A DNA stretch of 64,000 nt from Candidatus Omnitrophota bacterium (GTDB lineage Bacteria; Omnitrophota; Gorgyraeia; Zapsychrales; Zapsychraceae), in contig JAJDCA010000018.1 of NCBI GenBank assembly GCA_029261055.1, positions 18,197-82,196 on the forward strand, in the 5' to 3' direction. The notes beneath the pieces are model-generated. The model did not search any database, was not told the origin of the DNA, and saw nothing but the letters and a program-made list of their open reading frames with translations. Below are positions 1,860-52,721 of this stretch, one piece after another. Position 1 is the first letter of the stretch; every line of letters begins with the position of its first letter. The translations under genes were made by a program, and so were the position numbers.

Positions 1860-1900
1860 GGATGCATTATAACGAAATTATTAATAATTAATAATATTAT

Positions 1901-3638: not shown

Positions 3639-3639
3639 T

Positions 3640-9857: not shown

Positions 9858-12032
9858 CTATTTTATCAATCTATTAATATACCCTTGATCAACATTATAC
9901 CCAAAAGATTTAGCTTTTAGGGCATCTTGCAAGGCTTTTTCTCTCTGATTTTTTGCTTTATAAATCAAAGATCTTTTATAATATACCAAACCGTTTTGAG
10001 AATTCAACTTTATTATATTATTATAATCTTTTAATACATCTTCCATCCGATTCATTGCTAAATAAATATTGGCTCTTTGCCAATAGGCCCCTTCAAACCT
10101 GGGATTCATTTGAATGACTTTATCATAATCCGCTAACGCGAGCTGATATTTCCTTGTATTAAAATACGCAATGCCCCTATTGTAATACGCCTCCCAAAAA
10201 TGGGGGTTTAACTTTAAGGCATTTTTATAATCCTCTAAAGCGAGGGCATATTTTTTCATTTCAACATAGGCCGTACCTCTATTGCTGTAGGCCTTGATAT
10301 ACGTCGGGTTGATTTCCAGGGCTTTATTGTAATCGGCTAAAGCCGCATCATACTGTCCTTGTATTTTGTAAATGACACCTCTATTGCTGTAAGCGTCCTC
10401 TAAACGTGGATTGATTTCAATCGCTTTGTCATAGTCCGCCAAAGCCAAATTATTTTGTCCCATATGCCGATAGGCATTGCCTCTATTATTGTAGGCCTCA
10501 TCAAAATCAGGATTAAGCATTAACGCTTGATTAAAATTTTCTAAAGCGGTGTTGTATTGTTTTTTTGCACCGTAAGCCACACCCCGATTATTGTAAGCCT
10601 TAGCATGTTGCGAATCGATCGTAAGCGCTTTTGTGAAATACTCAATCGCTTGATTAAAATTACCATGCCTCAAAAAAGCCCCGCCCAAATTCATATGCGG
10701 CCTCAGCCTATGAGGTGATTTTTTCAATACGTCCTGCCAAAGAGTTACGCCATCCTGCCAAACGCTATTTCTCTGAAATGTTAAAAATGAACATGTCCCT
10801 ACAATCAAACTCAATACAATGACATATTTTTTGTAATCTTTCATCACATGCCGTAATCCCACCACCAACGCTATGGCAAAACCAACCATCGGTAAATAAA
10901 GCTTGTGTTCAAATATAACGTGACGTCGGGGAATAAAATTAGGTGCCAGCGTGAAAACAAACCAAAACATACCAAAAGCCATAAGTGTATTATATTTTTT
11001 AAACCTGATCGCAGCGACTAAAACACCTATCCAAGTGATCAAACTCAAACTCGTTGATAAGTCAAAAATATTTTGCGATAAAGAAAAATCATAATCGGGA
11101 TTCAAACCTATGGGGAAAAAAGAAATCCGCAAAAAAACCATCATCACGCGAAATTGCGTAAGAACATATTTTCCAAAAGTAATAACGTCTCCTACATGAG
11201 ATTCGGACATCTTCTGCGCGAACAACATACTCTTAACATTAAATGAAAATACTGCAGGAATGATAAGACAAAATAATAGTATCGTCCCCCAACCATACAC
11301 AGACCTCCGAGGTCTGTGTGCGGTTTCAGATGGCCGCAAAAACATAAACTCAATTAACAAAATCATCAACGGCAATGTAATCACAATCTCTTTCGTAAAC
11401 ATGCCAAGCACACCTGCAACAACGGCCCCGATAAAAAAATAATATTTGTACAGACGTGCCGATGCATCCTCCCTACCTTTCATGTACAAACACACGGCAA
11501 GAAGATAGAACATCGTCGCTAATGAAGCAAAACGTTGTGTAACATACGTCACCGCTTGCGTCTGCACTGGATGAGCGACGAAGATCAAAGCGACAAACAA
11601 TGCGACGGTCGAACCGTAAACAGACCTCGGGGGTCTGTTTGTAATTTTTTGTTGCAAACAGACCCCCGAGGTCTGTTTACGGCTTAAATTCCCCACAAGC
11701 ATCCCCACCAGCCACCACACCAACACCCCGCTCATTAAGTGAATCACCACGTTCGTCACATGATATCCGAAAACATCCAATTGATGAAAATGATAATTAA
11801 GGGCAAAAGAATAAAATGCCACAAAACGGGACGGTTGACTGAGCATACCCCATATCGAATCAAGGTGTGTAACATCACGAATGGCAGGATTACTGACGAT
11901 AAATATCAAGTCGTCAAAAACAAACTCATTTCGAAAAGTATTTGAATAAAGACCGATACCTAAAAAACATATCAGTAAAATAGGAAGAATTCTTGAGATA
12001 AAAATATTACTTATTTGGGGTGACTTCATCAA
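9858..12032 (-). CDS. Paralog 1 of 12: polytopic membrane PMT/TMTC-like (DUF1736-type, putative GT-C glycosyltransferase) protein with C-terminal TPR repeats
   Basis: N-terminal FVFDD...SQPSRFVAFYSFALNYHFH followed by more than 8 hydrophobic helices, then tandem 34-aa TPR units (AYNNRG..Y...G.Y..AL.DY.KAL.INP). Start uncertain; the ORF overlaps the next paralog. Confidence 0.6.
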   Translation of the reverse strand: MMKSPQISNIFISRILPILLICFLGIGLYSNTFRNEFVFDDLIFIVSNPAIRDVTHLDSIWGMLSQPSRFVAFYSFALNYHFHQLDVFGYHVTNVVIHLMSGVLVWWLVGMLVGNLSRKQTSGVCLQQKITNRPPRSVYGSTVALFVALIFVAHPVQTQAVTYVTQRFASLATMFYLLAVCLYMKGREDASARLYKYYFFIGAVVAGVLGMFTKEIVITLPLMILLIEFMFLRPSETAHRPRRSVYGWGTILLFCLIIPAVFSFNVKSMLFAQKMSESHVGDVITFGKYVLTQFRVMMVFLRISFFPIGLNPDYDFSLSQNIFDLSTSLSLITWIGVLVAAIRFKKYNTLMAFGMFWFVFTLAPNFIPRRHVIFEHKLYLPMVGFAIALVVGLRHVMKDYKKYVIVLSLIVGTCSFLTFQRNSVWQDGVTLWQDVLKKSPHRLRPHMNLGGAFLRHGNFNQAIEYFTKALTIDSQHAKAYNNRGVAYGAKKQYNTALENFNQALMLNPDFDEAYNNRGNAYRHMGQNNLALADYDKAIEINPRLEDAYSNRGVIYKIQGQYDAALADYNKALEINPTYIKAYSNRGTAYVEMKKYALALEDYKNALKLNPHFWEAYYNRGIAYFNTRKYQLALADYDKVIQMNPRFEGAYWQRANIYLAMNRMEDVLKDYNNIIKLNSQNGLVYYKRSLIYKAKNQREKALQDALKAKSFGYNVDQGYINRLIK
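11297..11319. repeat. 23-bp perfect palindrome, site 2 of paralog 1
   Basis: acacagacctc c gaggtctgtgt; encodes HRPRRSVYG. Confidence 0.8.
11614..11682. repeat. In-frame hairpin cassette, site 1 of paralog 1 (27-bp perfect stem, 15-nt loop)
   Basis: ccgtaaacagacctcgggggtctgttt / gtaattttttgttgc / aaacagacccccgaggtctgtttacgg; encodes NRPPRSVYGS loop. Confidence 0.85.
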
Positions 12033-14616
12033 AATATCGTTGATTAACTTGATAACCTAAAGATTGTGCCATAAGGGCATCCTCAAGAGCTTTTTCATTA
12101 TCACCTTTACTCTTATACGCAAGCGACCGTGCAAAATACCCCATACCTATCGTAGGGTTGATCTTTAAAAATTGCGTAAATTCTTCAATCGCCAGGTCAA
12201 ACTCCCCTCTTTCCCCATAAATGTTCCCCTTATTAAGATAGGTCACATAATTATTAGGATCAATATCCACCGCCTTATTAAATTCTTCTAAGGCCAAATC
12301 ATACTGTTTTTGCATTTTATAAATAACACCGCGGTTATTATAGGCCATCGCGTATTGTGGATTTAGTTCAACCGCTTTTGTGTAATCCTGCAAAGCCTTA
12401 TCCAGCATACCTTTTGATTTGTACACGACACCACGATTATTGTAAATTTCGCTGGCGTTTGGATCTATTTCCAAAGCCTTATCACAATTGGCCAAGGCCA
12501 AATCATACTGTTTCGTAGACTCAAACAAAACACACCGATTACTGTAAGACTCCATATATGTAGGATCAATCTCCAAAGCCTTGTCAAAATCATTCAAGGC
12601 GTCTTCATACTGACCTCTCATTTTATAAATAACACCACGATTATTGTAGGCCATAACATACTGAGAATCAATCTGGATGGCTTTATTGTAGTCCAAAAGA
12701 GCCAAATCATATTCTCCCTTTTTCTCATAAATAACGCCGCGGTTATAATACGCCTCTGTAAACCTAGGGTTAATACTCAAGGCCTTCTTGTAATCTTCAA
12801 GGATCAAATCATACTGGCCGGTTTCTTCATAAAGATTACTGCGGTTGCTGTACGCTTCTTCAAAATCAGGGTCGATCGCTAATGCTTTGTTAAAATCTTT
12901 AAGAGCCAACCCATGATTACCTTTTTTTTGATACACAATTCCCCGATTATTGTATGTTTTCACATAACTTCCATTAAACTCCAACGCCTTATTGTAATCA
13001 TCTAATGCCAAATCATCCTTATCCAAAGCTTCATAAACCACACCCCGGTCATTGTAAATTTCCGCAATGCTTGAATCCAAAGACATAGCTTTATTCAAAT
13101 CGGCAAGTGCAAGGTCATATTGTTTTTTATGACGATACGCATTCCCTCGATGATTGTAGGCCATGGTGTATTGACCATCCATTTCAATCACTTGGGTAAA
13201 ATGATCAATGGCATCGTCATATCGATCATATTCCAAATAAGCACTGCCTAAATTAATTTTCGGCCGTAACCGATTCGGCGATTTCTTCAAGGCATCCTCC
13301 CATAATGTAATGGGTGTCTGCCAAACCTTATTTCTTTGATAAGTCAAATAAGACAATATGATAAGAAAAATGCTCATACCTACGACAAATTTTTTAACGT
13401 CGCGAACATACTGAAAAAAACCAACACTTAAAACTAAAGAAAACCCAACCATAGGCAAATAAAGCTTGTGTTCAAAAATAACATGCCGCCGGGGAATAAA
13501 ATTTGGCGCTAAAGCCAGAAAAAACCAAAAAATCCCAAAAGCAATTAATAAACGCCGGGCCTTTATCTTCACGGCAAAGAGGAGACTGCCCATTACTAAA
13601 AGAAAACTTAACAACGTAGGCCATTCAAAAAAACTTTGGGACAATGGAAAATCATAATCGATATTCTGCCCCATCGGGAAAACGGCAAGCCGCAGAAAGG
13701 TTACCATCACACGAAACTGTGTCATCACATATTTCCCAAACGTAATCGTATCTCCTATGTGCGATTCCGACATTCGAGATGCAAACAAAGCATCTGAAAT
13801 ATTAAAAGAAAATACCGCGGGGATAATAAGCAAAAAAACCAAAACAACACTTATCAAAATTTTATTAACATGCTTCTTCTTGCTTTGGGCATCATAAAAA
13901 AACAAACCCTCAATTAAAAGAATCATCAAAGGCAAAGTAATGACAATTTCCTTAGAAAACATACCTAAAACAGCCGCCACAGCCGCTCCGAAAAAATAAA
14001 ATACAGACCTGCGACGCTTAGCCACCAATCGTCCGCTATCAGGCGTCAATATTTTAACTTTTTCTGAAGGCTGATGCCTGATGCCTGATATCTGACGCAT
14101 ACGCCCACTCACATACAAACAGACCGCTAATAAATAAAACAAGGTCGCTAAAGAAGCAAATCGTTGCGTAATATACGTCACCGCCTGCGTCTGCACCGGA
14201 TGGGCTACGAATATCAAGGCCGCAAACAACGGAATACTCGAACCGCCTCCGAACCTCGGGGGTTCGGATTTCCGAACCCCCGAGGTTCGTTTACGGTTAA
14301 GCGTCTCCATAAGCATCTTCACAAACCACCACACAAGCGTGGCCGTTATTAAATGAATCAGCAAATTTGTCAAATGATACGCAAATGCATCCAATTTATG
14401 AAAATGATAATTCAACGCAAATGAATAAAAAGCAACAAAACGGGACGGCTGACTGAGAAGATTCCAAATTTCTTTAACATTGCCTAAATTCTGAATAGGC
14501 TTATTGTTAACAATAAAAGGAATGTCATCAAATTGAAATGTGCTATGCAGCGTATTAGAGTAAAGAACGGCTCCTAAAAGCCATATGAGAAGAATAGGCC
14601 AATATTTTTTAATCAT
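12007..14616 (-). CDS. Paralog 2: PMT/TMTC-like membrane domain + TPR repeats
   Basis: Same architecture; TFQFDD, SQPSRFVAFYSFALNYHFH; about 14 TPR units. Confidence 0.6.
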   Translation of the reverse strand: MIKKYWPILLIWLLGAVLYSNTLHSTFQFDDIPFIVNNKPIQNLGNVKEIWNLLSQPSRFVAFYSFALNYHFHKLDAFAYHLTNLLIHLITATLVWWFVKMLMETLNRKRTSGVRKSEPPRFGGGSSIPLFAALIFVAHPVQTQAVTYITQRFASLATLFYLLAVCLYVSGRMRQISGIRHQPSEKVKILTPDSGRLVAKRRRSVFYFFGAAVAAVLGMFSKEIVITLPLMILLIEGLFFYDAQSKKKHVNKILISVVLVFLLIIPAVFSFNISDALFASRMSESHIGDTITFGKYVMTQFRVMVTFLRLAVFPMGQNIDYDFPLSQSFFEWPTLLSFLLVMGSLLFAVKIKARRLLIAFGIFWFFLALAPNFIPRRHVIFEHKLYLPMVGFSLVLSVGFFQYVRDVKKFVVGMSIFLIILSYLTYQRNKVWQTPITLWEDALKKSPNRLRPKINLGSAYLEYDRYDDAIDHFTQVIEMDGQYTMAYNHRGNAYRHKKQYDLALADLNKAMSLDSSIAEIYNDRGVVYEALDKDDLALDDYNKALEFNGSYVKTYNNRGIVYQKKGNHGLALKDFNKALAIDPDFEEAYSNRSNLYEETGQYDLILEDYKKALSINPRFTEAYYNRGVIYEKKGEYDLALLDYNKAIQIDSQYVMAYNNRGVIYKMRGQYEDALNDFDKALEIDPTYMESYSNRCVLFESTKQYDLALANCDKALEIDPNASEIYNNRGVVYKSKGMLDKALQDYTKAVELNPQYAMAYNNRGVIYKMQKQYDLALEEFNKAVDIDPNNYVTYLNKGNIYGERGEFDLAIEEFTQFLKINPTIGMGYFARSLAYKSKGDNEKALEDALMAQSLGYQVNQRYFDEVTPNK
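14038..14098. repeat. Heptamer (ctgaNNN) repeat / inverted-repeat cassette, site 0 of paralog 2
   Basis: ctgatgc ctgatgc ctgatat ctgacgc preceded by an inverted copy (cgctatcaggcgtca); encodes PSEKVKILTPDSGRL. Confidence 0.55.
14249..14289. repeat. In-frame hairpin cassette, site 1 of paralog 2
   Basis: ccgaacctcgggggttcgga tt tccgaacccccgaggttcg; encodes SEPPRFGG. Confidence 0.8.
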
Positions 14617-16981
14617 GCATTAACTCCCAAATCTTTAAACGTTGTTGTTCGGCAGGAACAAAACCTGGTTTAAGCTCCAAAACTTTTTCAAAACTTTTTA
14701 AAGCCTCTGGATATTTCTCTAAATTTATAAAAACAATGCCCTTATTGTAATACACTTCCAGGAAATCAGGATTAATTTCTAAAGCCTTCGCATAATCCGC
14801 CAGCGCAGCCTCATATTCTTTTTTCTCCACATAAGCCGTGCCCCGATTACTGTACGCCTGCGCATAGTTAGGATTAAGCGCTATGGCTTGTGTGTAATCC
14901 GCCAGGGCTAAATCATATTGCCTCTTCTTTCCGTAAACAATGCCGCGGTTATAATAAACGGTTTCAAATCCAGAATCAAGCTCTAAGGCTTTATTGTAAT
15001 CTGCTAAGGCTAAATCAAGTTGGCCCATTTTTTCATACACAAGCCCACGATTACTGTAAGAACTTTTATCATCCGGATCAAACGCCAAAGCTTTTTGATA
15101 ATCCGTTAGCGCCTTATCAAACTTTCCCTGTTTTCCGTACACAATTCCCCTGTTCCCATAGGCTTTAGCATAGTTCGGATTAATCGCCAACGTCTTTTCA
15201 TACTCCTGTAAAGCTAAATCAAATCGGCCTTTTTTTTCATAAATAATCCCGATGTTATTGTACACTTCTTCCAGGCCGGAACGCGATGCCAGGGCTTTTT
15301 GATAATCCTTAAGGGCCAAATCATATTGGCCTCGCTGCCTAAAAATATTCCCACGATTATTAAAAATTTTGATGGAATCCGGTGTAAGCTCAAGCGCATG
15401 ATTAAAATCTGCCAGCGCCAAATCATACTGACCCATTTGATCGTACACAACGCCTCGATTACTGTAGGCCTCAGCATAATTGGGCTTAAGCTTTAAAGCC
15501 TGATTATGGTCGACGAGCGCAAGATCATACCGCCGCTTTTTTTCATGAACAACACCCCGATTTGTGTAGGCCTGCGCATAATATGGATTAAGACTTAAGG
15601 CCCGATCATAATGTTTAAACGCCAAAGAATATTCATTACCTTGAAAATACGCACTCCCCAAATTATTATGCGCCCTGGCTTTATTCGGCGATTTATGGAC
15701 GACGTCTTCCCACAAATTTATTTCATTACGCCAAACTTGATTTCTCTGAAACGTCAGATAAGACAATGTCACAATAATAAGACTAATCGTAACCATGCAC
15801 TTTTTAGGATTTTTAAAAATCTGAAACATCCCCCCACACATGAACAAGGCCGCCCCCACCATCGCCAAATAAAGTTTATGTTCAAAAATAACATGCCGCC
15901 GAGGAATAAAGTTTGGTGCCAAGGCAATAAAAAACCAAAACAGCCCAAAGGCCGCTAACATATTACGTTTGCGCAACCAGAATATCAACCACCCCATGAT
16001 GCCCAAAAGAAATACAAAACTCAAAAACGTCGATCCTTCAAAAAAAGTTTGAGACAACGGAAAATCATAATCTGCATTCTGCCCGATAGGAAAAAGGGTA
16101 AGTTTGATAAATGTCGTCATCACCCTAAACTGCGTCATCACATATTTACCAAATGTAATGACATCGCCGTAATGCGATTCCGACATCTTTTGTCCAAACA
16201 CTACGCCCTTAATGTTAAAAGAAAATACGGCCGGGACAATAAGACAGAATAATAAAATCGGAATCACATACCGTCGTTTTGCTTTTAGAAAAAAATACTC
16301 AATCAAGAGAATCATCAATGGCAAAGTGATAACGATTTCTTTGGTAAACATCCCTAATACCGCAGCAATCGCAGCACCTAAAAAATGTACAGACGCGATT
16401 AATCCTGCCTTGCCGGCAGGCAGGCGCGTCTCTACGCCTCGCCCTTTAATGTAAAAACACAACGAAAGCAAATAAAACATCGTTGCCAAAGAAGCAAACC
16501 GCTGTGTAATGTACGTCACCGCCTGCGTCTGCAACGGGTGCGCCACAAAAATCAACGCAACAAAAAGAGCAACACTCGAACCGTACACAAACCTCGGGGG
16601 TTTGTATGGGTTTAAACCCATACAAACCCCCGAGGTTTGTGTACGGTTACCGCGCTTCACAAGCATCCCCACCAACCACCACACCAACACCGCCGTGGTC
16701 AAATGAATCACCAAATTCGTCACGTGATACCAAAAAGCATCGTACTGATGCACATGATAATTCAGCGCAAACGAATAAAACGCTACAAACCGTGACGGCT
16801 GACTCAGCATATTCCAAAGACCAGAAACATTACTGATGTCTCGAATCGCCGGATTCCCCAGAATAAACTGATGATCATCAAAATGAAAAGCCTCGTGCAA
16901 CGTATTCGCATACACCACCGCACCTAAAAGGCAGATCAAAACCACCGGAAACCAATTTTTAATTTTTTGGGATATTACCAT
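14609..16981 (-). CDS. Paralog 3: PMT/TMTC-like membrane domain + TPR repeats
   Basis: AFHFDD, SQPSRFVAFYSFALNYHVH; TPR array. Confidence 0.6.
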   Translation of the reverse strand: MVISQKIKNWFPVVLICLLGAVVYANTLHEAFHFDDHQFILGNPAIRDISNVSGLWNMLSQPSRFVAFYSFALNYHVHQYDAFWYHVTNLVIHLTTAVLVWWLVGMLVKRGNRTQTSGVCMGLNPYKPPRFVYGSSVALFVALIFVAHPLQTQAVTYITQRFASLATMFYLLSLCFYIKGRGVETRLPAGKAGLIASVHFLGAAIAAVLGMFTKEIVITLPLMILLIEYFFLKAKRRYVIPILLFCLIVPAVFSFNIKGVVFGQKMSESHYGDVITFGKYVMTQFRVMTTFIKLTLFPIGQNADYDFPLSQTFFEGSTFLSFVFLLGIMGWLIFWLRKRNMLAAFGLFWFFIALAPNFIPRRHVIFEHKLYLAMVGAALFMCGGMFQIFKNPKKCMVTISLIIVTLSYLTFQRNQVWRNEINLWEDVVHKSPNKARAHNNLGSAYFQGNEYSLAFKHYDRALSLNPYYAQAYTNRGVVHEKKRRYDLALVDHNQALKLKPNYAEAYSNRGVVYDQMGQYDLALADFNHALELTPDSIKIFNNRGNIFRQRGQYDLALKDYQKALASRSGLEEVYNNIGIIYEKKGRFDLALQEYEKTLAINPNYAKAYGNRGIVYGKQGKFDKALTDYQKALAFDPDDKSSYSNRGLVYEKMGQLDLALADYNKALELDSGFETVYYNRGIVYGKKRQYDLALADYTQAIALNPNYAQAYSNRGTAYVEKKEYEAALADYAKALEINPDFLEVYYNKGIVFINLEKYPEALKSFEKVLELKPGFVPAEQQRLKIWELMHD
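16391..16432. repeat. ATTAAT-centred palindrome interrupted by a nested palindrome, site 0 of paralog 3
   Basis: agacgcgattaatc [ctgccttgccggcaggcagg] cgcgtct; encodes ETRL-PAGKAG-LIASV. Confidence 0.7.
16581..16646. repeat. 66-bp perfect palindrome, site 1 of paralog 3
   Basis: ccgtacacaaacctcgggggtttgtatgggttt|aaacccatacaaacccccgaggtttgtgtacgg; encodes GLNPYKPPRFVYG. Confidence 0.85.
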
Positions 16982-19499
16982 CTAATAATGCATTATCTAT
17001 TTTCTTACCCAACATTTTAAATTTTTGCAAATCTGCCTTTGCTTCTGACTCTCGGTTCTTTTGCTGATAAATACTCGCCCTGTTTTTGTACGCCATGGCA
17101 TAGTTGGGATTAATGGCCAGGGCCTTATTAAAATCTTCAAGGGCGCGCGCATATTTACCTTGTGACTTATAAATAGTCCCCCGATTATTATACGCGACAT
17201 AAAGCTGAGGATTAATTTCAACAGCCCGTGTAAAATCAGCCAAGGCTAAATCATCCTTGCCTTGCCTTTCATACACAGCGCCCCGATTAGTGTATGCCTT
17301 ATCATATTGCGGATTAATCACGATGGCCTGCGTTAAGTTTTCAAGCGCTAAATCATATTGCTGCTTTCGAATGTAAATAAGCCCACGATTATAATAGGCC
17401 TTATCGAGCTCCGGATTAATGGCCAAAGCTTTATTCAAGTCTTTCATCGCTAAATCATACTGTCCTTTCTTTCCATAAATAATGCCACGATTACTGTACG
17501 CCTCATCCAGTCGCGCATCAATTTCAATCGCCCTACTGTAATCAGCCAGCGCCATATCATCTTGATTTTGCACGGCATGCACGGCACCCCGGTTATTAAA
17601 CGCCATGGCATACTGCGGGTTCAACTCAACAGCTTTGCTGTAATCCTTCATCGCCAAATCATATTGCCCCTTCGCCTTGTACACAACCCCTCGATTATTG
17701 TAAACCTCTCCAATGCCCGGATTAATTTCTAAAGCCTTATTAAAATCTGCCAAGGCCAAATCATATCGCCCTGTCGCCTCATACACCATGCCCCTATTAC
17801 CGTAGACTTTGGCATACAATGGATTCAACGCAAGCGCCTTATTGTAATCATCCAAGGCCAAATCATACGACCCCTTCTTCTTATGAATAATGCCACGGTT
17901 GTGATACGCTTTATAAAAATACGGATTAATCTCTAACGCCTTATTAAAATCTTCCAAAGCCAAATCACTTTTATCGTCGGTACGATACACCGCCCCACGA
18001 TTGCTTCGCGCCCCATCCAAATCAGGATCAATTGCTAAGGCACGATTAAAATCTTTCAGCGCCAGCTCTTTTTGATTCGTTGCCCCATACACCGCCCCAC
18101 GATTATTGTAGGCATTCGCATCATCCGGCTCCATGGACACCGCTTTATCTAAATACACCATAGCCTTATCATACTGTCCCTGTTCAAAATACGCTCGTCC
18201 TAAATTAATTTGCGGACGCAATTTGTGGGGGGATTTCTGAACAACATCTTCCCAAAGCGTCACTTCATTCGTCCAAACTTTATTTCGTTGAAATGTTAAA
18301 TATGCCAACACACACACAATAATACTCAACACAACCGCACCTTTCTTAACATTTTTCATCAAACGAAATATGCCCATGCTCAACATTAAAGAAAAACCAA
18401 TCATCGGCAAATACAATTTATGTTCAAAAATAATATTTCTTCTTGGAATAAAATTAGGCAACAATGTAAGAAAAAACCAAAATATGCCAAAAGTAATCAA
18501 TGTGTAACGGGCCCGAATCTTAAAAGCAATGCCAAGCATAGCCCCTAATGCCAAAAAACTTAACAGTGTAGGAATTTCAAAGAAATGCTGTGACAAAGCA
18601 AAATCATATTCCACATTCTGCCCAATGGGAAAAAAAGAAAGTTTTACAAACGTCATCAACACCCTAAACTGCGTCATCACATATGTTCCAAACGTAATCA
18701 CATCCCCTGCATGCGATTCTGAAATCTTTGGAGCAAACAACATATCGGAAATATTAAATGAAAACAGCGCGGGGATAATCAATACAAATAGTAAAGCCGC
18801 GATTAATCGCGGCTCCTTAATTTTGCGTACCCCACCTAAAAACATACATTCAATCAAAAGGACCGTTAAAGGCAATGTAATCACGATTTCTTTGGTGAAC
18901 ATGCCGAGGATAGCAGAAACAGCAGCGCCAAGAAAGTATACAGACGAGATTAATCGCGTCTCTACGATCCTACCTTTAATGTAAAGACACACCGAGAGCA
19001 AATAAAACAACGTCGCCAACGACGCGAACCGCTGCGCGATGTACGTCACCGCCTGCGTCTGTACCGGATGCGCCACGAAAATCAGTGCGGTAAAAAGAGC
19101 AATAGTCGAACCGTAAACACACCCCGGGGGTGTGTATTTGGTATTTAACCTCATACACACCCCCGGGGTGTGTTTACGGTTACAAAGCCCCACAAGCATC
19201 CCCACAAACCACCACACAAGCATGGCCGTGATCAAATGAATCACGAAATTCGTCACATGATACCCAAACACATCCAACTGATGAAAATGATAATTCAGCG
19301 CGAATGAATAAAACGCCACAAAACGCGATGGCTGACTCAATAATTCCCCAATGCCCTTAATATTACCCAAATCTCGAATCGCAAAATTATCGATAATAAA
19401 AATATTATCATCAAACTGAAAATCACTATGGAAGGTATTAGAATAACTGATGATCCCTACCAGAATAATAATCGCCCACGCAAAAATTGGATACTTCAT
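16959..19499 (-). CDS. Paralog 4: PMT/TMTC-like membrane domain + TPR repeats
   Basis: DFQFDD, SQPSRFVAFYSFALNYHFH; TPR array. Start placed at MKYPIFAW (19499) to avoid a 44-bp overlap; the ORF-track start is 19547. Confidence 0.55.
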   Translation of the reverse strand: MKYPIFAWAIIILVGIISYSNTFHSDFQFDDNIFIIDNFAIRDLGNIKGIGELLSQPSRFVAFYSFALNYHFHQLDVFGYHVTNFVIHLITAMLVWWFVGMLVGLCNRKHTPGVCMRLNTKYTPPGCVYGSTIALFTALIFVAHPVQTQAVTYIAQRFASLATLFYLLSVCLYIKGRIVETRLISSVYFLGAAVSAILGMFTKEIVITLPLTVLLIECMFLGGVRKIKEPRLIAALLFVLIIPALFSFNISDMLFAPKISESHAGDVITFGTYVMTQFRVLMTFVKLSFFPIGQNVEYDFALSQHFFEIPTLLSFLALGAMLGIAFKIRARYTLITFGIFWFFLTLLPNFIPRRNIIFEHKLYLPMIGFSLMLSMGIFRLMKNVKKGAVVLSIIVCVLAYLTFQRNKVWTNEVTLWEDVVQKSPHKLRPQINLGRAYFEQGQYDKAMVYLDKAVSMEPDDANAYNNRGAVYGATNQKELALKDFNRALAIDPDLDGARSNRGAVYRTDDKSDLALEDFNKALEINPYFYKAYHNRGIIHKKKGSYDLALDDYNKALALNPLYAKVYGNRGMVYEATGRYDLALADFNKALEINPGIGEVYNNRGVVYKAKGQYDLAMKDYSKAVELNPQYAMAFNNRGAVHAVQNQDDMALADYSRAIEIDARLDEAYSNRGIIYGKKGQYDLAMKDLNKALAINPELDKAYYNRGLIYIRKQQYDLALENLTQAIVINPQYDKAYTNRGAVYERQGKDDLALADFTRAVEINPQLYVAYNNRGTIYKSQGKYARALEDFNKALAINPNYAMAYKNRASIYQQKNRESEAKADLQKFKMLGKKIDNALLDGNIPKN
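18942..18961. repeat. 20-bp ATTAAT palindrome (1 mismatch), site 0 of paralog 4
   Basis: agacgagattaatcgcgtct; encodes ETRLISSV. Confidence 0.6.
19111..19179. repeat. In-frame hairpin cassette, site 1 of paralog 4 (27-bp perfect stem)
   Basis: ccgtaaacacaccccgggggtgtgtat / 15-nt loop / atacacacccccggggtgtgtttacgg. Confidence 0.85.
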
Positions 19500-19503
19500 T
19501 AAA

Positions 19504-22026
19504 TTATTTAGATTGAATATTTTCAAGGTAAGTCTCATCCATAACAAAACCTAAGGCCTTTGCCGTACGGGCATCTTCTAAAGCCTTTTGCCGATCCCCT
19601 TTGGCTAAATAAATACGCGACCGCACATAATACCCCGCCCCAAAAGTAGGGTTAGCCTGTAAAAACACATCCACATCCTCAATCGCACGTTGATACTGCT
19701 TCAACTTCTCATACACGGTGGCTCTATTAAAAAGATAACTGTAATTCTGAGCATCAAATAACATAGCCTTTTGAAAATCTGCCAGGGCCAAATTCCATTG
19801 CTTTTTTACCTTGTAAACAGCCCCGCGGTTATTGTAAATTTCATGCAATTGCGGATTAATTTCCAACGCCTTCGTAAAATCAGCAATAGCCAAATCATAT
19901 TTTCCCTGCTCCTTGTAAACCACCCCACGATTACTGTAAGCTTCCACAAGATTAGGATTAACTTCTAAAGCTTTGCCATAATCTACAAGCGCACGATCAT
20001 ATTGCTTTTGCCGTTTGTACACAATACCCCGATTATTGTACGCCGTCGCATATTCAGGATTAATACGCAAAGCATGATTGTAATCGGCCAGAGCCAAATC
20101 CCATTGCCCTTTCATCTCATACACAATCCCCCGATTGTAATACCCATCCGCCATCTCCGCATTCAATGCCAAGGCCCTGCTGTAATCTGCCAAAGCTTCA
20201 TCCAGCTGCCCTTTAAGTTTATTAATCACCCCACGGTTACCATAAGCCTCAGCAAGATTTGGATTAATTTCAATCGCCTTATCATAATCAGCCAGAGCCT
20301 TATCATACTGCCCATTCATTTTATAAATAATGCCGCGATTGCTGTACACTTTGGCATATTTAGGATCAATATCCACGGCCTTATTCATATCCTTTAAAGC
20401 CAAATCATACCGACCTGTCTTTTCATAAATCACACCGCGATTGTAGTATGCCTCCTTGTAATTCGGATTAATCGATAGAGCCTTTTCATAATCGGCCAGG
20501 GCCAAATCCCATTGCCCGGCCTTCTCATAAATCACGCCACGATTGCTGTACACATCCTCTAAATAAGGATCGAGCTGCGTCGCCTTTTCATAATCCACCA
20601 AGGCCAAGTCATACAATCCCTTAGCCTCATACGCCACCCCTCGAGCACTGTACCCTTCGGCATAATCCGTATCAATATCCAATACCTTTTCAAAATGCTG
20701 CAAAGCCGTATCATACTGTTCATGCTTTAAATAGGCCGCCCCCAAATTTAAATGCGGACGCAATTTATGCGGTGATTTCTTAACGACATCCTCCCACAAT
20801 GTCACCTCATTCAGCCAAACCTTATTACGTTGATATGTCAAAAAAGATAAAACACAGACGATCAGACTTAAAGCCGCCACACATTTTCTAAAATTTTTAA
20901 AAAGACTAAAAAACCATGCCACTAAAAAAAGCGCCCCGCCCGCCATAGACAAATACAGTTTATGTTCAAATATCACATGCTGGCGCGGCACAAAATTCGG
21001 TGACAAAGTCAACAAAAACCAAAATATCCCAAACGAAATCCAAATATTACGCTGCTTAAATTTGAAAGCAGCCCCGATGACACCTAAGAGGACAATAAAA
21101 CTTACAAATACCGGCACCTCAAAGAAATTGTGCGACAGTGGAAAGTCATAATCCAGATTCTGTCCAATCGGGAAAAAAGACAATTTCAAAAATGTCGCCA
21201 TAACGCGAAACTGCGTAATAATGTATTTGCCAAATGTAATCACATCCCCTTGATGCGATAGCGAAGTTTTTTCCCCCAATAACATTCCTGAAATATCAAA
21301 CGAAAATATGGCAGGAACAATAAGAAAAAACAATAAAATCGGAATCACATACAGCTTTTTTGTCTTTAAAAAAAAATGCTCAATCAAAAGAATCATCAAC
21401 GGCAAGGTGATCACAATTTCTTTCGTGAACATGCCTAGGACAGCAGCAACTGCGGCTCCAAAAAAATGTACAAACGTAATTAATCGCGTCCCACCATAGC
21501 GGCCCTTTACGTAAAAGCACAACGAAAGCAAATAAAACAACGTCGCCAAAGACGCCATCCTCTGCGTAATGTACGTCACGGCTTGCGTCTGCACCGGATG
21601 CACCACAAAAATCAATGCGGCGAACAACGCGACGGTCGAACCGTAACCGTCTCCGAACCTCGGGGGTTCGGATTTCCGAACCCCCGAGGTTCGGAGACGG
21701 TTAAGCATCCTAACCAACCACCACACTAAACACGCCGTGATCAAATGAATCAAAAGATTCACGACATGATACCCCACCACATTCAACTCATGAAAATGAT
21801 GATTTAACGCAAAAGAATAAAACCCCACAAACCGCGACGGCTGACTCAGCATATCCCAAATAGGACCAATGCCTGCAATATTCTTTATGGCTGAATTCTG
21901 AACAATAAAAAGCTTATCATCAAACTGAAAAGGAACCTGAAATGTGTTGGAATAGACAACGATGCCTAAAAGGCATATCGCTAACAACGGAAGCACAATT
22001 TTTTTAAAATTTTTCTTTAATACCAT
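19504..22026 (-). CDS. Paralog 5: PMT/TMTC-like membrane domain + TPR repeats
   Basis: PFQFDD, SQPSRFVGFYSFALNHHFH; about 14 TPR units. Confidence 0.6.
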   Translation of the reverse strand: MVLKKNFKKIVLPLLAICLLGIVVYSNTFQVPFQFDDKLFIVQNSAIKNIAGIGPIWDMLSQPSRFVGFYSFALNHHFHELNVVGYHVVNLLIHLITACLVWWLVRMLNRLRTSGVRKSEPPRFGDGYGSTVALFAALIFVVHPVQTQAVTYITQRMASLATLFYLLSLCFYVKGRYGGTRLITFVHFFGAAVAAVLGMFTKEIVITLPLMILLIEHFFLKTKKLYVIPILLFFLIVPAIFSFDISGMLLGEKTSLSHQGDVITFGKYIITQFRVMATFLKLSFFPIGQNLDYDFPLSHNFFEVPVFVSFIVLLGVIGAAFKFKQRNIWISFGIFWFLLTLSPNFVPRQHVIFEHKLYLSMAGGALFLVAWFFSLFKNFRKCVAALSLIVCVLSFLTYQRNKVWLNEVTLWEDVVKKSPHKLRPHLNLGAAYLKHEQYDTALQHFEKVLDIDTDYAEGYSARGVAYEAKGLYDLALVDYEKATQLDPYLEDVYSNRGVIYEKAGQWDLALADYEKALSINPNYKEAYYNRGVIYEKTGRYDLALKDMNKAVDIDPKYAKVYSNRGIIYKMNGQYDKALADYDKAIEINPNLAEAYGNRGVINKLKGQLDEALADYSRALALNAEMADGYYNRGIVYEMKGQWDLALADYNHALRINPEYATAYNNRGIVYKRQKQYDRALVDYGKALEVNPNLVEAYSNRGVVYKEQGKYDLAIADFTKALEINPQLHEIYNNRGAVYKVKKQWNLALADFQKAMLFDAQNYSYLFNRATVYEKLKQYQRAIEDVDVFLQANPTFGAGYYVRSRIYLAKGDRQKALEDARTAKALGFVMDETYLENIQSK
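21647..21700. repeat. In-frame hairpin cassette, site 1 of paralog 5 (26-bp perfect stem, tt loop)
   Basis: ccgtctccgaacctcgggggttcgga tt tccgaacccccgaggttcggagacgg. Confidence 0.85.
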
Positions 22027-23989
22027 TTAAATACCCATCTTTAACCGGATAATCTAAAGACTTTGCCTTTTGCGCGTCACGATAGGCCCTGCGAAAATTC
22101 CCCTGCGATTTATAAAACAAAGACCGGTTAAAATACACCTCTTTTAAACTCGGGTCAATAGATAAGGCCTTGTCATAATCAGCCAACGCTTGGGCATATT
22201 GTTTTTTCTGGCTGTAAGCAATGCCTCTATTTCCATACACCTCAGCATACTGAGGATCAATATTTAAGGCCTCCCTGTAATCAGACAGAGCTGCATCATA
22301 TTGCCCTTTCTTTTCATAAAAAATACCTCTGTTATTGTAAGCCTCTTTAAGGTTCACATTGACTTTACGATAATCTTCAAATGCCAGATCATACCGCCCC
22401 TGCCGGTCATAAATACCAGCGCGGCTTACGTAAGCCTTGGTGTAATTCGATTTAATCTTTAATGTTTTATTAAATTCCTCCAGGGCTAAATCATATTGCC
22501 CTCTTCTCTCATACACAAGCCCCCGCCCGTAATAGGCCTTGAAATAATATTCAGGCAGCCTTTCCCGTTTTAAATCTTCATTCATATTATGCCGTAAAAA
22601 ATAGGCACAACGGTCTAAGACTTTATTCAAATGTTTCTCAGCGGCATCATATTTGCCTTCTCTTAAATACCCAATACCCAAATTCAAATGCCCACGTAAC
22701 TTATCCGGAGACTTTTTGACCACATCCCCCCAAAGCGTTACCCCGTTTTTCCACACCTGATTCCGCTTGTACGCCAGAAAAGAAAACAACACAACAATAA
22801 TACTCAAAGCGGCCATACATTTTCTTTTATCTTTAAATACACTGAACATCCCCATACATAAAGCCAGCGAAAGCCCCACAAGGGGCAAATAAAGTTTATG
22901 TTCAAAAATCACATGTCTTCGGGGAACAAAATTAGGCGTTAATGTCAGCAAAAACCATAATAAGCCAAAAGCGATTAACCTATGCCGGCGCTTGAGTTTT
23001 AAAGCCAACAAAAATACACTCAACAAAGCCATAAAACTCAACAATACTGGCCATTCAAAAAGATGATGCGATAAGGGAAAATCATAATCAAAGTTCTGCC
23101 CCAACGGCACAAAAAATAATCTAAAAAATGTGGCCAACACCCGAAACTGCGTCAAAATATACGGACCAAAAGTGATCATCTCAATATCATGCGAAGCCGA
23201 AGACCTTACCCCTGATAATATTCCCAAAAACCGAAATGAAAACACAGCGGGAATAATCAAAAAAAACAAACCTACCGGTGCAACAATAAATTTCCGAAAC
23301 CTCTTCTGCCCCTCAAAAAAGAAAACCTCCACCAAAAGAATCATCAACGGCAGAGTAATCACAATCTCCTTGCAAAACATACCAAGGACAGATGCAATGG
23401 CAGCCCCAATAAAACACAACACCGTCCCTTGCCTTCCCAGCCTTCCCTTAATGTAAAAGCACAACGAAAGCAAATAAAACAACGTTGCGAGCGACGCAAA
23501 CCTCTGCGTAATGTACGTCACCGCCTGCGTCTGCACCGGATGCGCCACAAAAATCAACGCGGCGAACAGCGCGACGATCGAACCGTAAACGAACCTCGGG
23601 GGTTCGGATTTCCGAACCCCCGAGGTTCGGAGACGGTTAAGCATCCTAACCAACCACCACACCAATACAGCCGTGACCAAATGAATCACAAAATTCGTCA
23701 GATGATACCCAAACACATCCATCCCATGAACATGATGATTCAACGCGAACGAATAAAACACCACAAACCGCGATGGCTGACTCAACATATCCCACATCGC
23801 CCGCAAATTCGTAATATCCCTTATCGCAGGATTACTTGTAATAAAAAACTCATCATCAAATTGAAAAAAATGCTGGAAGGTGTCTGAATAGACAAAAAAA
23901 CCTAAAAGGCAGATCAATAATACAGAAAAAATCTTGCCAACACTGCTTCGCCAGGAACAGATCGGTACCATAATGTCGAAGTATACCAT
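22004..23989 (-). CDS. Paralog 6: PMT/TMTC-like membrane domain + shorter TPR array
   Basis: FFQFDD, SQPSRFVVFYSFALNHHVH; 661 aa. Confidence 0.6.
   Translation of the reverse strand: MVYFDIMVPICSWRSSVGKIFSVLLICLLGFFVYSDTFQHFFQFDDEFFITSNPAIRDITNLRAMWDMLSQPSRFVVFYSFALNHHVHGMDVFGYHLTNFVIHLVTAVLVWWLVRMLNRLRTSGVRKSEPPRFVYGSIVALFAALIFVAHPVQTQAVTYITQRFASLATLFYLLSLCFYIKGRLGRQGTVLCFIGAAIASVLGMFCKEIVITLPLMILLVEVFFFEGQKRFRKFIVAPVGLFFLIIPAVFSFRFLGILSGVRSSASHDIEMITFGPYILTQFRVLATFFRLFFVPLGQNFDYDFPLSHHLFEWPVLLSFMALLSVFLLALKLKRRHRLIAFGLLWFLLTLTPNFVPRRHVIFEHKLYLPLVGLSLALCMGMFSVFKDKRKCMAALSIIVVLFSFLAYKRNQVWKNGVTLWGDVVKKSPDKLRGHLNLGIGYLREGKYDAAEKHLNKVLDRCAYFLRHNMNEDLKRERLPEYYFKAYYGRGLVYERRGQYDLALEEFNKTLKIKSNYTKAYVSRAGIYDRQGRYDLAFEDYRKVNVNLKEAYNNRGIFYEKKGQYDAALSDYREALNIDPQYAEVYGNRGIAYSQKKQYAQALADYDKALSIDPSLKEVYFNRSLFYKSQGNFRRAYRDAQKAKSLDYPVKDGYLNGIKEKF
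23590..23629. repeat. In-frame hairpin cassette, site 1 of paralog 6
   Basis: cgaacctcgggggttcgga tt tccgaacccccgaggttcg. Confidence 0.8.
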
Positions 23990-24105: not shown

Positions 24106-26655
24106 TCAATGATAATCTGCTTCCACCGGGTACCCCAGAGACTTAGCTTTTTGAAGATCGGCGAGGGCTTGTTTTTTGTGGCCTAAGATAGAATGAGTTA
24201 GGGAACGTTGGTAATAAATCTTTGAAAAATTTGGGTTAATCGATAAAGCTTTATTGTAATCCGCCAAGGCCAATCGATACTGTTTGCGTCGCATGTACAC
24301 GACGCCCCGGTTACTGTAGGTGCCGGTGTAATAGGGGTTAATTTTGAGCGCCCGATTAAAATCGACAAGCGCTAAATCTTCTTCCCCTTTAATGCCATAC
24401 ACAATGCCGCGATTATTGTACGCTTCGGCGTAATTAGGATGCACCGCAATGGCTTTAGTGTAATGGGTGATGGCCACATCATATTGTTCGACTTGCCTAA
24501 ATACATTGCCGATATTGTAATACGCCTCCGCAAAGTTTGGACTAATGGACAATGCCATTTGAAAATCATTTAAGGCTAACTGAAACTGACCTAATTTCTT
24601 GTACACAAGTCCGCGATTGCTGTAGGCCTTTACGTACCGTGGATTAAGCGCCAGGGCTTTGTTGTAATCCGCTAAAGCCAATTCATGACTCCCCTGCATT
24701 TCGTACAGGATGCCGCGGTTATTGTAAAGCCCGGCCTCCTTGGGAGCGATCGACAATCCTTTATTGTAATCAATCAAGGCTAAATCATATTTACGCTGTG
24801 TCCTGTAAATATTGCCCCGATTATTGTACAGCTGTATTTTGTGAGGATTAATTTCCAGGGCCTTATTAAAATCAGCCAGGGCTAAATCATATTTACGCTG
24901 TTTGTCATAAATCACACCGCGATTACCTAAAGCCGCCACAAATCCAGGATTAATTTCCAGGGCCTTATTGTAATCTGCAATCGCTAAATCCGGCATCCCC
25001 TTGGCGTCATAACACAGCGCGCGGGAATTGTACGCTTCCAGATAAGTCGAATTCATACGTAAGGCCTTGCTTAAATCTTTAATCGCCAAATCATATTGCC
25101 CTTTAACCTTGTACACTAGCCCGCGATTAATGTAACCTTCAATGTAATTCTTATTGTACTTAACGGCATTGTTGTAACTTTGAAACGCCAAATCATACAT
25201 CTCCGCCTGATAATAGGCATTACCCATATTATTGTGCGACCGCGGCTTTCGGGGAGATTTACTAATAATGTCTCTCCACAATTTTACGGGTGTTTCCCAA
25301 ATTTTATTGCGTTGGACCGTTAAGTACGACAAAGTAAGGAAAATAATACTCATAACCGTTAAGAATTTCTTAAAGTTTTTCATGAGGTGATGCAGACCAA
25401 CGGACACCGCCAGAGAAAAACCCACCATTGGAAGATACATTTTATGTTCAAAAATAATATGCCGCCGTGGTACAAAATTTGGCGACAGTGTGAGAAAAAA
25501 CCAAAATATTCCGAAAGCACTTAATCCATACAGTATCTTTTTTTCTCTTTGTGTTGCGATCTGCGCACGCGTTAAATGATATCCACTTTTCGGTTTACCT
25601 GATCGTGAAAAAAGGTTACCCACTACCGCCAGCTTGACAGCACCTAAGAAAATCGCCAACAATAGGCTAAAACTAAAAAACACCGCTGGCTCAAAAAAGC
25701 TCTTTGACAAAGCGTAATCGTAGTCGACATTTTGGCCAATGGGTAAAATACACAATTTCAAAAATGTCATCATCACCCTAAACTGCGTAATAAAATAATT
25801 TCCAAACGTAATCACATCACCGGCATGGGAAGCCGAATATTTTATGCCAAACAGTTGGCCCATAAAATTAAATGAAAATATGAACGGAATAATCGCCATA
25901 AAAATGACAATGGGACTAAAATACAACAACTTCATCATGCCACGTGCCGTCTTTTTATTTTTCTTAGGCTTTTGAAGAAAAGCCCATTCCACAAGGATAA
26001 TCGTCAATGGCAGCGTAATCACAATTTCCTTGGTAAACATGCCGAGAACAGCGGCAATGGCTGCACCGACAAAATACAATACTGACCACGGATCACTGAC
26101 CACTGACCACTTATTACGCCCCTTAATGTAAAGACACAGGGACAACAAATAAAACAAGGTCGCCAAAGACGCCATCCGCTGCGTAATGTACGTCACCGCC
26201 TGCGTCTGCGCCGGGTGACACACAAAAATTAACGCCGCACACAGCGCAACGATCGAACCGTGTACAAACCCCCGAGGTTTGTATGCGGTTTTGTACCGCA
26301 TACAAACCTCGGGGGTTTGTACACGGTTAAGACTCTCCACTAACATCCCCACCAACCACCACACCAACACGGCATTCATCAAATGAATCACCATATTCGT
26401 GACATGATATCCAAAAGTATCCAACTGATGGAAATGGTAATTGACAGCAAAAGAAAAGAATCCAATAAACCGTGATGGCTGACTCAACATATCCCACATC
26501 GGCTTAATATCCATCACATCTTTAATGGTAGGATTATTGATAATAAAAATAAAATCATCAAACTGAAAGGAATGATGGAAGGTCTGCGAATACACCGTAA
26601 GGCCTACGAGGCAAATGAGCAATACGGGCAAGAATCGTGATAATTTTTTAATCAT
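24106..26655 (-). CDS. Paralog 7: PMT/TMTC-like membrane domain + TPR repeats
   Basis: SFQFDD, SQPSRFIGFFSFAVNYHFH; TPR array. Confidence 0.6.
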   Translation of the reverse strand: MIKKLSRFLPVLLICLVGLTVYSQTFHHSFQFDDFIFIINNPTIKDVMDIKPMWDMLSQPSRFIGFFSFAVNYHFHQLDTFGYHVTNMVIHLMNAVLVWWLVGMLVESLNRVQTPEVCMRYKTAYKPRGFVHGSIVALCAALIFVCHPAQTQAVTYITQRMASLATLFYLLSLCLYIKGRNKWSVVSDPWSVLYFVGAAIAAVLGMFTKEIVITLPLTIILVEWAFLQKPKKNKKTARGMMKLLYFSPIVIFMAIIPFIFSFNFMGQLFGIKYSASHAGDVITFGNYFITQFRVMMTFLKLCILPIGQNVDYDYALSKSFFEPAVFFSFSLLLAIFLGAVKLAVVGNLFSRSGKPKSGYHLTRAQIATQREKKILYGLSAFGIFWFFLTLSPNFVPRRHIIFEHKMYLPMVGFSLAVSVGLHHLMKNFKKFLTVMSIIFLTLSYLTVQRNKIWETPVKLWRDIISKSPRKPRSHNNMGNAYYQAEMYDLAFQSYNNAVKYNKNYIEGYINRGLVYKVKGQYDLAIKDLSKALRMNSTYLEAYNSRALCYDAKGMPDLAIADYNKALEINPGFVAALGNRGVIYDKQRKYDLALADFNKALEINPHKIQLYNNRGNIYRTQRKYDLALIDYNKGLSIAPKEAGLYNNRGILYEMQGSHELALADYNKALALNPRYVKAYSNRGLVYKKLGQFQLALNDFQMALSISPNFAEAYYNIGNVFRQVEQYDVAITHYTKAIAVHPNYAEAYNNRGIVYGIKGEEDLALVDFNRALKINPYYTGTYSNRGVVYMRRKQYRLALADYNKALSINPNFSKIYYQRSLTHSILGHKKQALADLQKAKSLGYPVEADYH
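26082..26110. repeat. Direct repeat cactgacca x3, site 0 of paralog 7
   Basis: actgaccacggatcactgaccactgaccac; encodes WSVVSDPWSV. Confidence 0.55.
26258..26326. repeat. In-frame hairpin cassette, site 1 of paralog 7 (32-bp perfect stem)
   Basis: ccgtgtacaaacccccgaggtttgtatgcggt tttgt accgcatacaaacctcgggggtttgtacacgg. Confidence 0.85.
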
Positions 26656-39283: not shown

Positions 39284-39360
39284 CCCCTTAATGGGCATGA
39301 TAAATCATGCCCCTACAAACGACACTCCTCGTACGGGCATGATTTATCATGCCCCTAAAA
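39284..39360. repeat. Two intergenic REP-like hairpins (gggcatgat NN atcatgccc) between GH15 and the BatC-like gene
   Basis: ccccttaatGGGCATGATaaATCATGCCCctac ... cgtacGGGCATGATttATCATGCCCctaaaa. Confidence 0.75.
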
Positions 39361-46183: not shown

Positions 46184-46212
46184 CTGTACGGGCGGTTCGC
46201 GAACCGCCCCTA
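46184..46212. repeat. REP-like GC-core hairpin between the moxR start and the upstream gene stop
   Basis: gtacgggcggttcgcgaaccgcccctac; a sister of the copy at 52722. Confidence 0.7.
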
Positions 46213-46224
46213 CTCCAATTTTTT

Positions 46225-52106: not shown

Positions 52107-52130
52107 TTTGAATTGGGTTTGATAAATCAA

Positions 52131-52695: not shown

Positions 52696-52721
52696 TTCAT
52701 CTCCTATGTTTACTGTACGGG

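Follow-up and report, generated by a model that had tools for sequence, protein, structure and literature searches.

What kind of event places one palindrome inside another within a protein-coding gene and leaves the reading frame intact? This question is raised by a 64,000-nucleotide (nt) stretch of bacterial DNA (the window, meaning the whole stretch analysed), in which the third of twelve tandem genes for a membrane protein carries a short palindrome split by a second one. The gene, paralog 3 (14609-16981, minus strand, 790 amino acids), was delimited from its open reading frame (ORF), its translation and an alignment of the paralogs. We call the outer palindrome Y and the inner palindrome X. 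Our analysis indicates that the two are probably very small palindromic repeat elements, a copy of X having entered a copy of Y precisely and after the paralogs had diverged. Near-identical copies of X and of Y occur in very different bacteria and phages and, judged from these sequences, look like extremely small mobile DNA elements; the site in paralog 3 is one instance of a much wider phenomenon, which may not have been described before.

The composite site in paralog 3

The nested palindromes lie in a short loop of the protein, after CFYIKGR (C[LF]Y.KGR in the family) and before F.GAA, a position that we call site 0. The whole composite spans 16387-16435, where the + strand reads GTAC AGACGCGATTAAT CCTGCCTTGCCGGCAGGCAGG CGCGTCT CTAC, that is, a GTAC tag, the left part of Y, X, the right part of Y and a CTAC tag (GTAG...GTAC on the coding strand). 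Y in this gene is GTAC-AGACGCGATTAATCGCGTCT-CTAC, broken at 16404-16424 by the 21-nt X, CCTGCCTTGCCGGCAGGCAGG. The first 13 nt of the Y core, AGACGCGATTAAT, which comprise the left arm and the ATTAAT centre, occupy 16391-16403, and the last 7 nt, CGCGTCT, which form the right arm, directly abut X at 16425-16431. The entry point is therefore between bases 13 and 14 of the 20-nt Y core (+ strand), the junction of the ATTAAT centre with the right arm, and the inverted-repeat arms of the composite are at 16387-16397 and 16425-16435. A preliminary description of this DNA had also recognized an ATTAAT palindrome split by an inner one. The split is real, but the insert has 21 nt and not 20, and the 20-mer given at that time lies one base out of place and, read in its own register, is not self-complementary. 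X corresponds to the 20-mer consensus of its family plus one T, and it is not a perfect palindrome: CCTGCC-(T)-TGCC pairs with GGCA-GGCAGG over 10 bp, with one bulged T.

On the coding strand the site reads GAG ACG CG[C CTG CCT GCC GGC AAG GCA GG]A TTA ATC, the bracketed X encoding LPAGKAG. The peptide proposed for the insert is thereby borne out, parsed as ETR-LPAGKAG-LIASV, with a net gain of seven residues in frame; the frame is kept because the copy of X in paralog 3 is the 21-nt form. As single-stranded DNA, the composite folds into a 14-bp coaxial stem with a 6-nt ATTAAT bulge (-13.6 kcal/mol for the + strand and -15.4 kcal/mol for the - strand as DNA; z = -3.8 and -4.8), and the uninterrupted Y, a perfect 20-nt palindrome, forms an 8-bp stem with a 4-nt loop (-8.7 kcal/mol as DNA, z = -4.4). 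X occurs once in the window, even when three mismatches are allowed. No X k-mer of 11 nt or more that could have served as a local template was found elsewhere in the window, and a 10-mer at 431 belongs to an unrelated coding region. A search of the window with Rfam matched no family anywhere.

Direction of the event

The Y 20-mer was found at six places in the window with up to three mismatches, against none in 100 shuffles. Y lies in frame, in the part of the gene that encodes the loop, in six of the twelve paralogs (3, 4, 5, 8, 10 and 11), so that the window holds six copies at one homologous site of the tandem genes plus one variant in another loop. The uninterrupted AGACGCGATTAATCGCGTCT is exact in paralogs 8 (28006-28033 including the tags, GTAC-AGACGCGATTAATCGCGTCT-CTAC, our reference for the empty site), 10 (core at 32023-32042) and 11 (core at 33902-33921). 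The core has one mismatch in paralog 4 (AGACGAGATTAATCGCGTCT, 18942-18961) and is decayed in paralog 5 (AAACGTAATTAATCGCGTCC, 21472-21491). On the coding strand, the tag before the core is GTAG in paralogs 3, 4 and 8 and GCAG in paralogs 10 and 11. The variant, a second Y-type palindrome in the other loop of paralog 4 (AGCCGCGATTAATCGCGGCT, 18795-18814, peptide EPRLIAA), differs by a compensatory pair, A>C with T>G, and remains a perfect palindrome.

The alignment of site 0 at the DNA level that had been recommended, here made with paralogs 3, 4, 5, 8, 10 and 11 and a distant homologue, contains a single clean gap of 21 nt, which can be placed in two ways one base apart (G on the coding strand, C on the + strand). 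Apart from this ambiguity of 1 nt, no target-site duplication was found around X in paralog 3, contrary to what might have been looked for at a nested insertion. The distant homologue is P0102, from another assembly (locus L001, 45% identical), which has ETRLIAS at site 0; its DNA there, GAA ACA CGA TTA ATC GCA TCG, holds a decayed Y that lacks X. A neighbour-joining tree built from the membrane domains puts paralog 3 beside paralogs 5 and 6 and amid paralogs lacking X, with the Y-bearing paralogs scattered across it. A single insertion in paralog 3 is preferred, because the reverse course would need at least four base-exact deletions. It is thus strongly supported that X was inserted into Y after the paralogs had diverged and was not deleted from the others. 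The earlier view of the inner hairpin as inserted and not ancestral agrees with its absence from paralogs 4, 5, 8, 10 and 11 and from the foreign homologue, with the dispersed family to which it belongs and with a pair of filled and empty sites described below.

The same view had been taken of the outer palindrome, for which the evidence is divided. The 28 nt of Y differ at 0-2 positions among paralogs 3, 8, 10 and 11, whereas the 60-nt coding flanks differ at 8-20 positions per side and the proteins are only 50-65% identical. Y is thus far better conserved than its coding flanks and has therefore been either recently homogenized or constrained at the DNA level; in addition, it belongs to a dispersed, GTAG-tagged family. 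Against a simple insertion of Y, the loop that bears it is no longer than in homologues without Y. Because of this, and because of the decayed Y in P0102, Y may either be old in the sub-family and have been kept perfect, or have replaced native sequence.

Filled and empty sites of X at other loci

Exact filled and empty sites show that X is mobile elsewhere. In a phage tRNA-Met locus (L146), the filled site reads ...CACGAGG[X]TCGCCGGTTCGAATCC..., and the empty state is found at the syntenic loci L344 and L345, which read ...CACGAGGTCGCCGGTTCGAATCC.... The filled and empty loci differ by exactly 20 nt, with no base duplicated or lost, and ARAGORN calls a 92-nt tRNA at L146 with X in place and a canonical 72-nt tRNA once X has been removed. 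Protein genes provide similar comparisons. When MurB of an Adlerbacteria metagenome-assembled genome (MAG; L026) is aligned with P. aeruginosa MurB (PDB 4jay), a seven-residue gap falls exactly at LPAGKAG. The ftsK gene of a Saccharibacteria MAG (L015) encodes SYNA-NLPAGRQA-ADVREPL, and the residues contributed by X are absent from all of the 120 nearest FtsK homologues (58-81% identical), in which the loop is about seven residues shorter. The copy of X here is 20 nt long, and the original reading frame resumes no more than 14 nt further on. Reading frames of at least 250 amino acids span six of twelve 21-nt copies of X but 12 of 111 copies of the other forms (Fisher p = 0.002), and the 21-nt form reads LPAGKAG in five independent genes, including that of the window.

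Some further copies adjoin tRNA-like sequences. Four of them directly follow a tRNA-like D-loop (GTAGCTCAGTYGGT..A, X, G.GC; L019 4041, L046 2127, L107 67 and L153 515), and the tRNA similarity fades soon after X. As ARAGORN calls no tRNA at these places with or without X, we regard them as tRNA-like fragments and not as proven disruptions of tRNA genes. At L123, a 13-nt deletion adjoins X in a tRNA-Met gene.

Distribution of X

We scanned one genome per species with the pattern CCTGCC-N0-2-TGCCGGCA-N0-2-GGCAGG. At least 120 genome contigs matched, and the 80 listed represent, by their record titles, about nine phylum-level groups: Bacteroidota (20), Patescibacteria (19), Planctomycetota (7) and Omnitrophota (6), as well as Gamma- and 'delta'-proteobacteria, Nitrospirota, Chloroflexota, Ignavibacteria and Balneolales. 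Three carriers are cultured (Winogradskyella echinorum KCTC 22026, Flagellimonas yonaguniensis 334s03 and Gracilimonas amylolytica LA399). The commonest form is the perfect 20-mer CCTGCCTGCCGGCAGGCAGG, with about 100 copies; the 21-nt form (an extra T/A) and a 22-nt form are rarer. The identical 21-mer also occurs in other genomes, and the 22-nt variants appear to be tied to particular lineages. The flanks of the X loci are unrelated and their median G+C is 0.42. If the whole collection had this G+C, 0.06 perfect 20-mers would be expected by chance, and about 9 at a G+C of 0.65. The exact 20-mer is also present in 35 viral stretches, several of which contain 2-6 copies and for which Pfam confirms that they are phages. 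Neither the X 20-mer, the Y 20-mer nor the peptides LPAGRQ and LPAGKAG were found in the searchable full-text literature.

Many copies of X and Y lie within heptamer or octamer arrays. Decayed, variant and nested copies of X occur, and together with tandem copies they fit a family with births and deaths. The phage contig L155 is packed with X-like variants at 1568-4142, some of them inside ORFs (LPTGKAG, CLPAGR), and contains an array of 11 perfect tandem copies of a unit that is a 21-nt X variant. In a WWE3 MAG (L053 2000) and a Daviesbacteria MAG (L057 3381), perfect 20-mers lie in a similar peptide context, …GLPAGRQG(N/E)IF…, within genes that are apparently homologous and whose flanking protein sequence has diverged; this pattern suggests either repeated insertion at one site or conservation of X at the DNA level.

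Target preference

Flank identity at 118 copies of X was 0 nt in 59% and 1 nt in 31%, much like that of controls, giving no sign of a target-site duplication, and the exact filled and empty tRNA-Met pair likewise shows none. The sole bias in base composition concerns the base 5' of X, which is A in 41% and T in 8% of the flanks. X is found more often than controls within hairpins: stems of at least 7 bp flank 11 of the 118 copies (9.3%, against 2.5% of controls; 3.8-fold, p = 2e-4). Nine of these 11 hairpin hosts have X immediately next to one arm of their stem, with any loop bases on its other side, and several of the hosts are older copies of X (L022, L052, L025, L126, L144 and L148). The geometry in the window is alike, with a 7-bp host stem and X at offsets of 6 and 0.

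Proposed mechanism and its difficulties

These observations suggest the following course of events. The host Y would be a 28-nt stem-loop of the GTAG-tagged repetitive extragenic palindromic (REP) type (coding strand GTAG-AGACGCGATTAATCGCGTCT-GTAC), and the guest X the 21-nt form of the GC-rich 20-nt palindrome CCTGCCTGCCGGCAGGCAGG. X entered Y at the junction of loop and stem, with no host base duplicated or lost; it stacks on the Y stem and lengthens the hairpin, and the protein gained LPAGKAG in a loop between membrane helices. We infer that X is non-autonomous: an enzyme acting in trans would move it as a folded, single-stranded hairpin, leave no target duplication and favour junctions of loop and stem. 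Our best guess is an enzyme like HUH/RAYT or like those of IS200/IS605. An enzyme acting on folded single-stranded DNA is proposed because X is a symmetric hairpin, leaves no duplication and prefers such junctions.

IS200/IS605 elements and their REP and PATE derivatives, which depend on HUH Y1 transposases, recognize hairpins in single-stranded DNA and make no target-site duplication. They insert 3' of a fixed tetra- or pentanucleotide and have distinct left and right ends. X differs from them in being a single symmetric hairpin and in having no conserved target.

The mechanism is the weak point of the proposal that X entered Y as an element, and several observations weigh against it. X lacks the fixed target tetranucleotide used by HUH/RAYT or IS200/IS605-like enzymes; among its flanks we found no conserved target motif of any kind, and no GTAG (or CGTC) tag, GTA[GC] being present no more than 8 nt away in 9 of 333 flanks where about 13 were expected. 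No gene for a plausible mover is at hand: no RAYT or IS200-like gene was found in the window, as Pfam detected no Y1 transposase domain among the 24 of its ORFs that were scanned, and 68 ORFs from X-rich phage contigs, searched for a common mobilizing gene, yielded phage structural and packaging families and two rve integrases, none of them recurrent. X also appears to be low-copy in most genomes, with one stretch per contig even in contigs of 0.9-4.4 Mb, a pattern that ordinary REPs do not show and that fits poorly with proliferation inside a genome, and the identity of the 20-mer across phyla is unexplained. Finally, the analysis covered 64 kb of the source genome, and the site in paralog 3 is known from assembled sequence alone.

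In its broader form, the proposal states that X is an undescribed 20-nt mobile element, the smallest known, of the same sequence across phyla and phages, which makes no target duplication, prefers junctions of loop and stem and adds the seven residues LPAGKAG or LPAGRQ within genes. We put this forward tentatively, as a possibility somewhat short of an even chance. If it is true, there would be either an unknown and broadly distributed, perhaps phage-borne, machinery with a built-in template, or a strong sequence-specific constraint, and the nested copy in the window would record the target geometry of X.

Alternative explanations

X might instead be a scar, consisting of two 10-nt termini left after a larger element was excised, or the core site of a site-specific recombinase. 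Its form, two inverted half-sites of 10 nt, its low copy number per genome and the lack of a target duplication would suit such an origin, as would its position where tRNA similarity ends in the four tRNA-like fragments and the two rve-type integrases encoded by X-rich phage contigs. In 1.17 Mb of loci, however, we saw no larger element with CCTGCCTGCC...GGCAGGCAGG as its ends, X is the sole difference between the filled and empty tRNA-Met loci, and X nests in its own copies and forms a tandem array. Cut-and-paste scars, moreover, normally retain the target duplication. We consider this origin unlikely.

The insert could also have arisen locally and de novo, by template switching or snap-back synthesis while a break at the outer hairpin's tip was being repaired. 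The preliminary description had mentioned repair beside insertion, and it is not needed to account for the site. The insert does adjoin the hairpin tip, is itself palindromic and lacks a target duplication, and there is no second copy of X in the window; but the identical 21-mer and its parent 20-mer recur with unrelated flanks in more than 100 unrelated genomes and phages, and the local flanks contain neither half of X as a template, which makes a de novo origin very improbable.

It is no more credible that paralog 3 is ancestral and that the other paralogs lost X by hairpin-promoted deletion. Palindromes are prone to deletion, and there is the 13-nt deletion beside X at the phage tRNA locus L123. 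Even so, the losses would have to be base-exact and independent in at least four paralogs scattered over the tree, and to extend to the foreign homologue, and the uninterrupted Y is the form of 193 copies elsewhere.

Least probable of all is a technical sequence introduced into contigs by library preparation or assembly, since the insertions are base-exact with reading frames continuing on both sides, X occurs in genomes of cultured isolates, in many independent projects and in one complete MAG chromosome, and it has lineage-linked 22-nt variants, decayed and nested copies and a 21-nt form enriched in coding sequence, against which stand the recurrence of one sequence in many unrelated assemblies and a window site known only as assembled.

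The Y family and related hairpins

Metagenome contigs were scanned for Y with the pattern AGACGCG-N0-30-ATTAATCGCGTCT, and copies were found in at least 120 metagenome contigs and in 38 viral stretches. The perfect 28-mer GTAGAGACGCGATTAATCGCGTCTCTAC accounts for 45% of 193 copies, and 64% of the 193 carry GTA[GC]..[CG]TAC tags, including the GTAC..CTAC form of the window. Ten copies are situated at the exact centre of longer perfect palindromes (5-17 bp per arm), compared with 0.05% of control positions. Some other contigs contain 4-9 copies in 9-12 kb, and some of the contexts look cyanobacterial. Y was not found in the 1.17 Mb of X-bearing loci.

X and Y were observed together, within 8 kb, in the metagenome contigs L173 (2523-2609, 65 nt apart) and L233 (1012, 4283 and 5474). 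In another metagenome contig, at L190 759-790, Y (GTAG...GTAC) makes up helix 6, the V1 hairpin, of a gene for bacterial 16S rRNA (Rfam SSU_rRNA_bacteria, 383 bits). The centre of Y (e.g. 28010-28029), GCGAT-TAAT-CGC, is the HIP1 octamer of cyanobacteria, GCGATCGC, split by a central TAAT. It has been suggested that SDR5 inserts at HIP1 (PMC5861425), and the likeness of Y to HIP1 may be a coincidence.

The window also contains intergenic hairpins in a similar frame. Two of them (46186-46213 and 52715-52742) have the sequence GGGCGG[TC]TCGCGA[AG]CCGCCC in a GTAC-N20-CTAC frame and differ by a compensatory pair. Further REP-like ones, GGGCATGAT..ATCATGCCC, likewise in a GTAC-N20-CTAC frame, lie at 39288-39359 and 52100-52230. 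The core GGGCGGTTCGCGAACCGCCC, from one of the first two hairpins, occurs in 23 unrelated viral stretches, mostly with GTAG tags, and the core of the second kind in five.

Comparison with known repeats

In the GTAG-tagged REP super-family, certain families are common to distant species and certain copies are intragenic (Di Nocera et al. 2013, PMC3733652), and the movement of such repeats has been treated in the REPIN/RAYT model (Bertels & Rainey 2011, PMC3116915). Like these REPs, Y consists of a 20-nt stem-loop with GTAG on one side, and the intergenic GTAC-N20-CTAC hairpins of the window share this frame. Y differs from them in that its copies in the window are all intragenic and in frame, and copies elsewhere mostly have a paired tag (the perfect 28-mer), while the tag of classic REPs is unpaired. 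By its sequence, Y appears to be REP-like and matches the GTAG-tagged architecture. X is unlike REPs: it has neither a GTAG nor a CGTC tag and appears to be low-copy per genome, yet it is common to many phyla.

Beside the GTAG-tagged REPs, the known elements closest to X and Y are SDR1-8, which are reportedly mobile repeats of about 20-27 nt, some of them palindromic, found in other repeats and in heptamer tandem arrays. They are the 'very small mobile repeated elements' of Nostocaceae (Elhai et al. 2008, Genome Res 18:1484, as cited in PMC5861425, PMC3116915 and PMC2884548), and the account of them given in PMC5861425 places them in Nostocaceae only. X and Y resemble the SDRs in being tiny repeats that often lie in heptamer or octamer arrays, and we set them beside the SDRs by description, not by sequence. 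X differs in its hosts, which include candidate phyla radiation (CPR) bacteria, Omnitrophota, Bacteroidota, Planctomycetota, Proteobacteria, Chloroflexota and phages, with no cyanobacteria among the 80 listed.

Two other groups of short palindromes enter genes. Rickettsia palindromic elements are said, after work by Ogata et al. in 2000, to be palindromic selfish DNA that lies in frame in protein genes and is tolerated in surface loops. They are about 100-150 bp long and are not known outside Rickettsia. X (20-22 nt, crossing phyla) and Y (28 nt) fall outside this range of size and host, the host here being Omnitrophota-like. The second group comprises GC-rich palindromic clusters from the mitochondria of yeast and the palindromic repeats of Volvox organelles (PMC2670323), to which the coding palindromes of Nematomorpha mitochondria (PMC6649704) can be added. 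Like X, these organelle elements are short GC-rich hairpins that have spread through AT-richer genomes, that invade genes as well as one another and for which no enzyme is known, but they exceed X in length (30-50 bp or more), and each family keeps to a single lineage. Both the Rickettsia palindromic elements and the organelle GC clusters are analogues of X and not its relatives.

The host genes and other palindromes of the window

The twelve tandem paralogs occupy 9858-36935 on the minus strand and are 48-82% identical to one another. Each encodes an N-terminal multi-pass membrane domain and C-terminal TPR repeats; the latter were identified with TPR families of Pfam, and the N-terminal domain matched no Pfam family at E <= 0.001. 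Outside the window, the nearest homologues share about 50% identity, and their sources give them as Candidatus Omnitrophica/Omnitrophota, from which the genome of the window appears to be Omnitrophota-like.

The loops of the twelve paralogs are filled with differing palindromic or repeat elements. All twelve carry a perfect or near-perfect coding palindrome of 58-73 nt in the loop that precedes site 0 (11614-11682, 14241-14298, 16579-16648, 19109-19181, 21644-21703, 23581-23638, 26256-26328, 28177-28249, 30221-30293, 32190-32262, 34069-34141 and 36452-36509), encoding peptides such as NRKRTSGVRKSEPPRF. Its sequence varies from paralog to paralog, self-complementarity is kept in each, and every arm has a small hairpin of its own. 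Similar palindromes are present in a third loop (27857-27914, 29826-29883 and 36033-36105). The core 21-mer of the 58-70-nt palindromes was not found in viral contigs, so that no sharing between genomes was seen for them. At site 0, paralogs 2, 9 and 12 have a different insert of about 75 nt, which consists of TCAGnnn heptamer repeats followed by their inverted copies (13981-14121, 29958-30101 and 36201-36344) and resembles the heptamer arrays beside many copies of X and Y in other genomes.

Implications

How REP-like and very small repeats move is largely unknown, and such repeats are usually seen as species-specific and extragenic. The single nested site described here gives the exact point at which one micro-element was inserted into another, and X is the same in CPR bacteria, Omnitrophota, Bacteroidota, Planctomycetota, Proteobacteria and phages, where it enters proteins, a tRNA gene and other hairpins. 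If X is indeed such an element, the lower size limit of mobile DNA would fall to about 20 nt, the odd seven-residue LPAGRQ and LPAGKAG inserts in conserved proteins would be explained, and X would provide a recognizable marker for recent insertions in uncultured lineages. What moves hairpin micro-elements would then become a testable question.

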